Under the pieces are notes generated by a model, which made no database searches, was not told where the DNA came from, and was given only the letters and a program-made list of their open reading frames with translations. This document shows, one piece after another, positions 57,419 through 57,930 of a stretch of DNA of 64,000 nucleotides. The stretch lies in assembly GCF_056746865.1 (NCBI RefSeq), contig NZ_CM163382.1; one strand, given 5' to 3'. The position numbers and the translations under genes were made by a program. How positions within the stretch are numbered: position 1 is the first letter of the stretch; every line of letters begins with the position of its first letter.

Positions 57419-57930
57419 TTGGCATTTCATCTCCATCTGCGGCACACGCAATTGCCAAAGCATATCGATACAGCACCTTACCCTGCCCCTCCTGCCACAA
57501 TAACATCTACCAGCGACTCATCCAGCCAACACTCCAAATACATTTCTTTATGAATTAACCCGCAACAAACACGCCTCCCATATAGAAATTTTTGCAAAAA
57601 AAGTGCATGGAAAAAGCTTTTTCTCCACCAATCCGGGATATAAATATTCATCAGCACCACAATATTCCACATCACTAAATCTCTCCCCGCCGCCCCGTAC
57701 CTCTGATAATGGTCTAAAATCATTGAGGCCACTTGCGACGACGTTGCTCAATAAGGAAAATTTGGCGTGAATAATATTCAACACCAGTGCAGCATCATCA
57801 TTACATACTTACACCCGCCGACTACCGCTTTCGATATATTGACTCAATTTTCCAGCCTGGTTAAAAATAGCGACCAGCTCAGTCGCAAATATAGTGACTA
57901 CCCTAACTAAGCAACAATAAGGAATACACT

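Follow-up and report, generated by a model that had tools for sequence, protein, structure and literature searches.

The long spacer between yedS and hchA of Escherichia coli probably contains the relic of a Usp-family gene

Why are the yedS-like porin gene and hchA, which encodes glyoxalase III/Hsp31, so far apart in Escherichia coli? In the window, that is, the whole stretch of 64,000 nucleotides that was analysed, the locus order is dcm-yedJ-drpB-rseX-porin(yedS)-hchA-hprSR; the porin ends at position 57337 and hchA starts at position 57931, which leaves a spacer of 593 bp. An earlier note on this DNA was concerned with the part that follows the porin terminator (57420-57930) and took its length as a hint to a platform for nucleoid proteins or to the gene of an unannotated sRNA. 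Length proved to be a poor guide in this case: about half of the region (57429-57707) is DNA which evolves at a near-neutral rate and which we regard as the relic of a usp gene. Very probably, the region consists of this inert DNA and of the hchA regulatory region (57708-57930). The long gap would then be due to a usp relic and to an unremarkable hchA promoter measuring about 110-220 bp, which accounts for the length of a spacer that ranks among the longer unannotated ones in the chromosome of E. coli K-12.

Of 5426 complete E. coli genomes, 4850 contain the yedS-hchA spacer, with 92-100% identity. Its equivalent in MG1655 comprises positions 2,035,244-2,035,834, and the RefSeq annotation of this strain contains zero features inside it; a gene-free spacer between the porin terminator and hchA, as described in the earlier note, is indeed present. 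We found no paper mentioning the yedS-hchA spacer; a sigma-S SELEX peak listed as "rseX > hchA" is positioned upstream of yedS and lies outside of it. The coordinates of all features are compiled in Table 1.

The region had also been called AT-rich, which is correct in a mild sense and was overstated: its GC content is 43.1% compared with 49.2% for the window, corresponding to the 14th percentile of 511-bp windows. Sub-blocks of the region vary between 34% and 60% GC, and the rseX-porin spacer upstream of the porin is, with 30% GC, far more AT-rich. The unusual feature of the region is an excess of C over G on the plus strand: the skew of about -0.5 belongs to the lowest 0.08% of 250-bp windows. 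Within 57429-57707, values are between -0.5 and -0.68 (27 G and 77 C were counted in 57429-57672), and C-runs such as CCCCTCC and CCCCGCCGCCCC occur. The skew of the relic (-0.5) is much stronger than in the corresponding segments of the intact usp gene of Escherichia sp. E1V33 (-0.11 to -0.29). The lagging strand would account for its sign but not for its size.

Table 1. Features of the yedS-hchA locus and of other parts of the 64-kb window
Feature	Position	Strand	Description and basis
ES036/CssrF match	24175-24216	+	Whole-window Rfam scan, 42.9 bits, just over gathering score
DsrA sRNA	46598-46684	-	Whole-window Rfam scan, 102.5 bits
RseX sRNA	55086-55175	+	Rfam RF01401, 97.7 bits; within the rseX-porin spacer (30% GC)
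Porin halves	55418-56236 and 56969-57337		ORF list
Intrinsic terminator of the porin (yedS-like)	57380-57417 (hairpin 57380-57411 plus T-run)	+	12-bp stem, 8-nt loop; terminator scan
Putative usp relic, 3' end (codons ~105-134 of 134)	57429-57522	-	nhmmer; blocks 71-74% identical to L008 2908-3002; tblastn
Putative usp relic, collapsed middle (codons ~45-104)	57523-57583	-	61 bp compared with 213 bp in the intact gene; alignment to L006-L009
Putative usp relic, 5' end (codons 1-~30)	57584-57672	-	nhmmer; tblastn; translations of nine strains
Junction, ~35 C-rich bp	57673-57707		Place of the ~477-bp usp-hchA divergent spacer of other Escherichia; pairwise alignments
Predicted distal hchA upstream region	57708-57822	+	Moderately conserved in the genus; blastn 79-83% to L005, L007-L009
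Predicted core hchA promoter and 5' leader	57823-57930	+	Near-invariant in all Escherichia species compared
hchA (glyoxalase III/Hsp31)	57931-58782	+	Intact, 283 aa; ORF list and RefSeq annotation at loci with the same or almost the same sequence

An intact usp gene in other Escherichia species and its counterpart in E. coli

For a comparison of hchA loci, we used one genome per species. In four non-coli Escherichia genomes the spacer is about twice as long; these are E. whittamii (L007), Escherichia sp. E1V33 (L008), and two records labelled E. coli, which are representatives of separate species (L006, L009). All four contain an intact ORF of 134 aa on the minus strand, which is convergent with the porin and divergent from hchA. 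The deduced protein exceeds the threshold of the Pfam family Usp (PF00582) with 38.4 and 39.0 bits versus a cutoff of 24, the match covering residues 1-124 of 134. In NCBIfam, the best match is UspG (NF012000) with 62.9 bits versus an equivalog cutoff of 189, and the score for UspF (NF011581) is 36 bits versus a cutoff of 166; because both values are far below the equivalog cutoffs, the protein represents a separate UspG/F-like paralogue. The best match in the PDB is the UspF-like structure 3fdx; 3fh0 was also found. Like the members of the UspG/UspF class (3fdx, 3fh0, 4r2l), the protein consists of a single domain, which aligns over residues 1-115, whereas its C-terminus is shorter than theirs. 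It is rare: among 5.8 billion proteins, only 8 clusters were found, and all named ones are from Escherichia. The dN/dS values among the four orthologues are between 0.18 and 0.38; therefore, the gene is kept by purifying selection where it is intact. Upstream of it, a divergent spacer of about 470 bp separates usp from hchA (L008 3309-3778, with equivalents in L007 and L009), which has 36% GC, is free of ORFs of at least 50 aa, and is absent from E. coli.

A profile built from the four coding sequences only was used to scan both strands of the window (128 kb) by means of nhmmer with all filters off. Just two matches were significant: model positions 9-93 correspond to 57667-57584 (E = 5.5e-6) and model positions 313-401 to 57516-57429 (E = 9.6e-6), both on the minus strand. 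They are colinear and correctly oriented; the next best match had an E-value of 2.6. The ancestral start codon is located at 57672-57670, where the window strain has an ATG. By tblastn, residues 4-41 of the intact protein aligned at 34% identity over 38 aa, in the frame of the 84-aa ORF; DESLVDVIVAG (residues 103-113) was likewise found in this frame, and IDMLWQLRVP (residues 121-130) in another one. The 3' relic block is out of frame with respect to the 5' block, and in the window strain a premature TAA occupies 57480-57478. The identity with other Escherichia species is 85-90% on the terminator side and 77-92% for the 223 bp proximal to hchA. Since homologous flanks exist on both sides, the position of the relic is orthologous to that of the intact gene.

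Similarity is weak at the level of the protein. Among 2385 six-frame segments of the window, the relic ORF was the top match of the ortholog profile, with an E-value of 0.042, and ranked above a uspC-like ORF. The latter, a genuine Usp-family ORF at 1902-2351 (plus strand), was the second-best match of the profile (E = 0.31); from its map position in K-12 it is likely to be uspC, and its E-value illustrates the large distance between the lost paralogue and the Usp genes that are still resident. The 64-, 78-, and 84-aa translations had no match in Pfam or NCBIfam, even at E ≤ 10, and the five largest ORFs of the region were equally without a match. This silence of the family models is expected because 40% of the gene is gone. 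Due to the weak similarity of the proteins, the case for a relic rests on DNA homology and synteny.

It is conceivable that the likeness to usp is coincidental and that the spacer is fast-evolving intergenic DNA without genic ancestry. In agreement with this notion, the protein-level scores are weak, and a MAFFT alignment of the whole spacers of eight genomes misplaced the 5' relic block; it was replaced by blastn, nhmmer, and long-gap pairwise alignments. However, coincidence would have to explain two independent DNA matches, each with an E-value of about 1e-5 and the sole ones in 128 kb, the order and strand of which are as expected and which occupy the orthologous position, flanked by homologous DNA on either side. 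Moreover, the ancestral start position and reading frame are kept over 40 codons. We regard a coincidence as extremely improbable and interpret 57429-57672 as the relic of the 134-aa Usp-family gene, the relic ORF being, on this evidence from homology, not a product of chance. In MG1655, its equivalent is found at about 2,035,334-2,035,576 on the minus strand. Both minus-strand ORFs cited in the earlier note (84 aa and 78 aa) are present in the ORF list, and the statement that no ORF is plausible was right with respect to function; it did not anticipate that the 84-aa ORF has a non-random origin, namely as a decayed remnant in the ancestral usp frame, the start of which falls into the region of the ancestral start codon.

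Compared with L008, two segments are missing from E. coli. The net loss is about 152 bp in the middle of the gene (L008 3003-3215 versus 57523-57583 in the window) and about 438 bp in the usp-hchA divergent spacer (L008 3302-3778 versus 57669-57707). The latter segment would have held the usp promoter. Since the protein family to which the intact gene belongs is old, the change was a loss in E. coli rather than a gain elsewhere. A blastn search (word size 11) with the intact gene and the lost spacer detected neither of them in any of the 5426 complete E. coli genomes, and the same two deletions were observed in all nine E. coli strains that we compared in detail. Because all strains carry these deletions, the relic is invisible to a comparison among E. 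coli strains and shows only against other Escherichia species.

E. marmotae has a usp copy beside the porin which decayed separately and has an internal deletion of its own; in E. albertii, the proximal spacer is kept and a usp remnant was not detected. Loss of the rare Usp paralogue is thus a recurrent process in the genus, which affects E. coli and E. marmotae and possibly also E. albertii. In the hchA neighbourhoods of Citrobacter, Enterobacter, Pluralibacter, Rosenbergiella, and Pantoea, neither the porin nor usp was found; due to this absence, these loci give no outgroup information.

We propose that the ancestor possessed a minus-strand UspG/UspF-like gene, which converged with the porin and diverged from hchA, and that the ancestor of E. 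coli lost about 152 bp from the middle of this gene. About 438 bp of the divergent spacer, including the putative usp promoter, would have been lost too, and later drift would have introduced stops, frameshifts, and start-codon losses that differ from strain to strain. The locus combines the hallmarks of a pseudogene: syntenic DNA homology, disabling lesions, and evolution without purifying selection. We regard it as a unitary pseudogene relic which is fixed in E. coli and is located beside a known stress promoter; the relic is unannotated in MG1655. The finding is of modest value for annotation and does not constitute a new regulatory element.

Diversity within E. coli and candidates for RNAs and small proteins

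The decay of the relic can be followed in the nine E. coli strains, which include K-12, strain C, O157:H7, ATCC 25922, and SF-088. The ancestral ATG is kept in two of them and replaced by CTG in the other seven, six have a TAG at codon 16, and strain-specific indels of 1-4 bp are scattered over the relic. Nucleotide diversity (pi) is 0.052-0.093 for the relic blocks, the collapsed middle having the highest value of 0.093, and 0.103 for the junction, compared with 0.075 at third and 0.002 at second codon positions of hchA; as the strains were picked to span the range of identity in the yedS-hchA spacer, the diversity of the spacer may be inflated relative to that of hchA, which leaves the contrast between relic and proximal sequence unaffected. 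The proximal 223 bp upstream of hchA, with values of 0.026-0.030 (0.030 for the distal part, 0.026 for the core), are two to three times less variable than the relic. The relic appears to drift at about the neutral rate, that is, roughly like the third codon positions of hchA.

Does the spacer contain an unannotated sRNA or a gene for a small protein? Candidates for the latter are the 64/84-aa ORF on the minus strand and an ORF of 47 aa on the plus strand (57767-57910). In a minority of genomes, PGAP annotated a minus-strand "hypothetical protein" of 64 or 78 aa, which at first glance argues for a gene; the protein is not always the same one, and most genomes have none. The ATG of the minus-strand ORF is gone in seven of nine strains, and the interruptions differ in each. 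As the breaks in the frame vary among the strains, the 64/84-aa ORF is a strain-specific accident of a decaying frame, and annotators should not call such "hypothetical proteins" in the relic. The 47-aa ORF has an SD-like AAGGA (57753-57757) and a GTG or ATG start that are kept across Escherichia. However, it is frameshifted by a deletion of 2 nt in L008 and L009 and lacks codon periodicity, the variable columns being distributed over the three phases as 15/15/12 and 7/7/7. Furthermore, it overlaps the core promoter, which already accounts for its conservation. We rejected it as a coding sequence on the basis of the frameshift in two species and the missing periodicity; it is probably not coding.

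For an sRNA, all indicators were negative. Rfam scans, performed at E ≤ 10 for the region and at the gathering score for the whole window, found none in 57420-57930; at E ≤ 10, a chance match was located on the porin terminator, outside the region. Both strands of 57420-57710 fold no better than shuffled sequences (z-scores of +1.1 and -0.2). The promoter scan identified one promoter-like site, compared with 2.3 expected, which is the hchA promoter, and none in addition. The sole terminator-like hairpin on the minus strand is an imperfect palindrome inside the hchA promoter. Together with the empty RefSeq annotation of MG1655, these results speak against the sRNA considered in the earlier note, and we judge a hidden sRNA or small protein to be very improbable. 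We infer that the relic is neither transcribed nor functional; indirectly, the lack of a promoter-like site in it and the deletion of the putative usp promoter point in this direction.

The hchA promoter region and the role of H-NS

In order to characterize the 3' part of the spacer, the last ~235 bp of eight genomes from at least five species were aligned. In the distal part (57708-57822), the blocks CTAAAAT, AATAAGGA, and ATATTC are conserved. The core, which corresponds to about 2,035,727-2,035,834 in MG1655, contains a -35-like hexamer TTGACT (57839-57844), a TAAAAAT (57862-57868) located 17-18 bp downstream, a -10-like TATAGT (57890-57895), and the Shine-Dalgarno sequence AAGGA (57917-57921). 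TTGACT and TATAGT may be the hexamers of the hchA promoter that are used in vivo. The imperfect palindrome GCGACCAGCTCAGTCGC at 57870-57886 was considered as a conserved hairpin or terminator and rejected, as its left arm differs between species. According to this pattern of conservation, 57708-57930 can be regarded as the hchA regulatory region, the last ~110 bp of which are held near-constant across the genus. The regulatory sequence of hchA that had been expected in the region is thus present, and it is the 3' part that carries it, the last ~110-220 bp being conserved. The search for hchA regulation is thereby narrowed to the ~110-220 bp adjoining the gene.

Two further observations concern this part of the spacer. 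The conserved sequences AATAAGGA and TGAATAATATTCA, the latter a 6-1-6 palindrome (57768-57780), may be the site of a regulator. In E. coli 1070/13 (L004, NZ_CP171472.1, 4248-5030), an IS1 is found ~85 bp upstream of hchA, and all DNA between fliR and the hchA promoter, these two included, is missing, with ~30 bp of the spacer left. In this strain, hchA would be without the conserved core promoter; losses of this type may explain some of the ~560 genomes without a match to the spacer.

The -35-like hexamer is overlapped by the near-consensus H-NS motif TCGATATATT (57831-57840). It differs by one mismatch from TCGATAAATT, which Lang and co-workers reportedly described in 2007 as the H-NS nucleation motif; the window contains 12 sites with one mismatch, compared with 5.5 expected. 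The statement of the earlier note that hchA is silenced by H-NS agrees with a literature citation: in PMC3141248, Mujacic and Baneyx (2006) are cited for hchA as an H-NS-silenced promoter that is relieved by sigma-S. Among promoters of this kind (csgBA, hchA), the proximal ~110 bp would fit well, with TTGACT overlapped by a near-consensus motif and followed by TATAGT. The published silencing of hchA concerns the promoter; our analysis gave no sign that the 280 bp upstream take part in it.

One may ask whether the whole ~500 bp are nonetheless bound by H-NS, with nucleation near the promoter and spreading over AT-rich relic DNA that was co-opted as a track for the silencing of hchA. Several findings are compatible with this model: PMC3141248 cites hchA as a case in which sigma-S relieves silencing by H-NS, TCGATATATT nearly matches the nucleation motif and lies over the -35 hexamer, and the region has 41-43% GC. 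Moreover, spreading depends on composition and not on sequence, which makes neutral drift an incomplete argument against a platform. On the other hand, the relic evolves at about the synonymous rate and accumulates strain-specific indels, and in sister species, which share the core promoter, its place is taken by longer DNA of a very different sequence. Additionally, the relic is not especially AT-rich (14th percentile) and contains C-rich runs with 52-60% GC. On balance, we consider an H-NS-bound platform of this extent unlikely. Still less probable, in our view, is a co-option of the usp relic in a broader sense, be it as H-NS spreading DNA that tunes hchA silencing or as the origin of a small ORF or an antisense transcript that varies between strains. 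If a co-option as spreading DNA were true, the loss of the divergent usp gene would have rewired hchA regulation in comparison to the sister species. The preferred reading remains an inert relic next to a compact promoter.

Decay of the porin gene and other elements of the window

The neighbouring porin gene is itself damaged. In the window, it is split by an IS1 at about 56230-56960, in which insA and insB are encoded by the minus strand. Strain D2, the spacer of which is 100% identical, has no IS and an internal stop in the porin. A frameshift or an internal stop disrupts yedS in K-12, O157, and D2, and the gene is intact in many E. coli strains such as E. coli C, ATCC 25922, SF-088, and A10. 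The IS1 in the window, the stop in D2, and the intact copies elsewhere identify the yedS-like porin gene as a polymorphic pseudogene with several independent lesions. The yedS pseudogene of K-12 and the usp relic are alike in being disabled genes in a decaying region; the usp relic was disabled by deletion and frameshift and drifts near-neutrally. However, yedS is intact in many strains, whereas no intact copy of usp exists in the 5426 genomes. As is the case for fixed pseudogene relics, the usp relic would persist for no other reason than that its deletion has not occurred so far.

The whole-window Rfam scan also gave the matches to DsrA and ES036/CssrF listed in Table 1. The rseX-porin spacer, in which RseX is located, is much more suitable as a candidate for an AT-rich region of the H-NS type than the yedS-hchA spacer.
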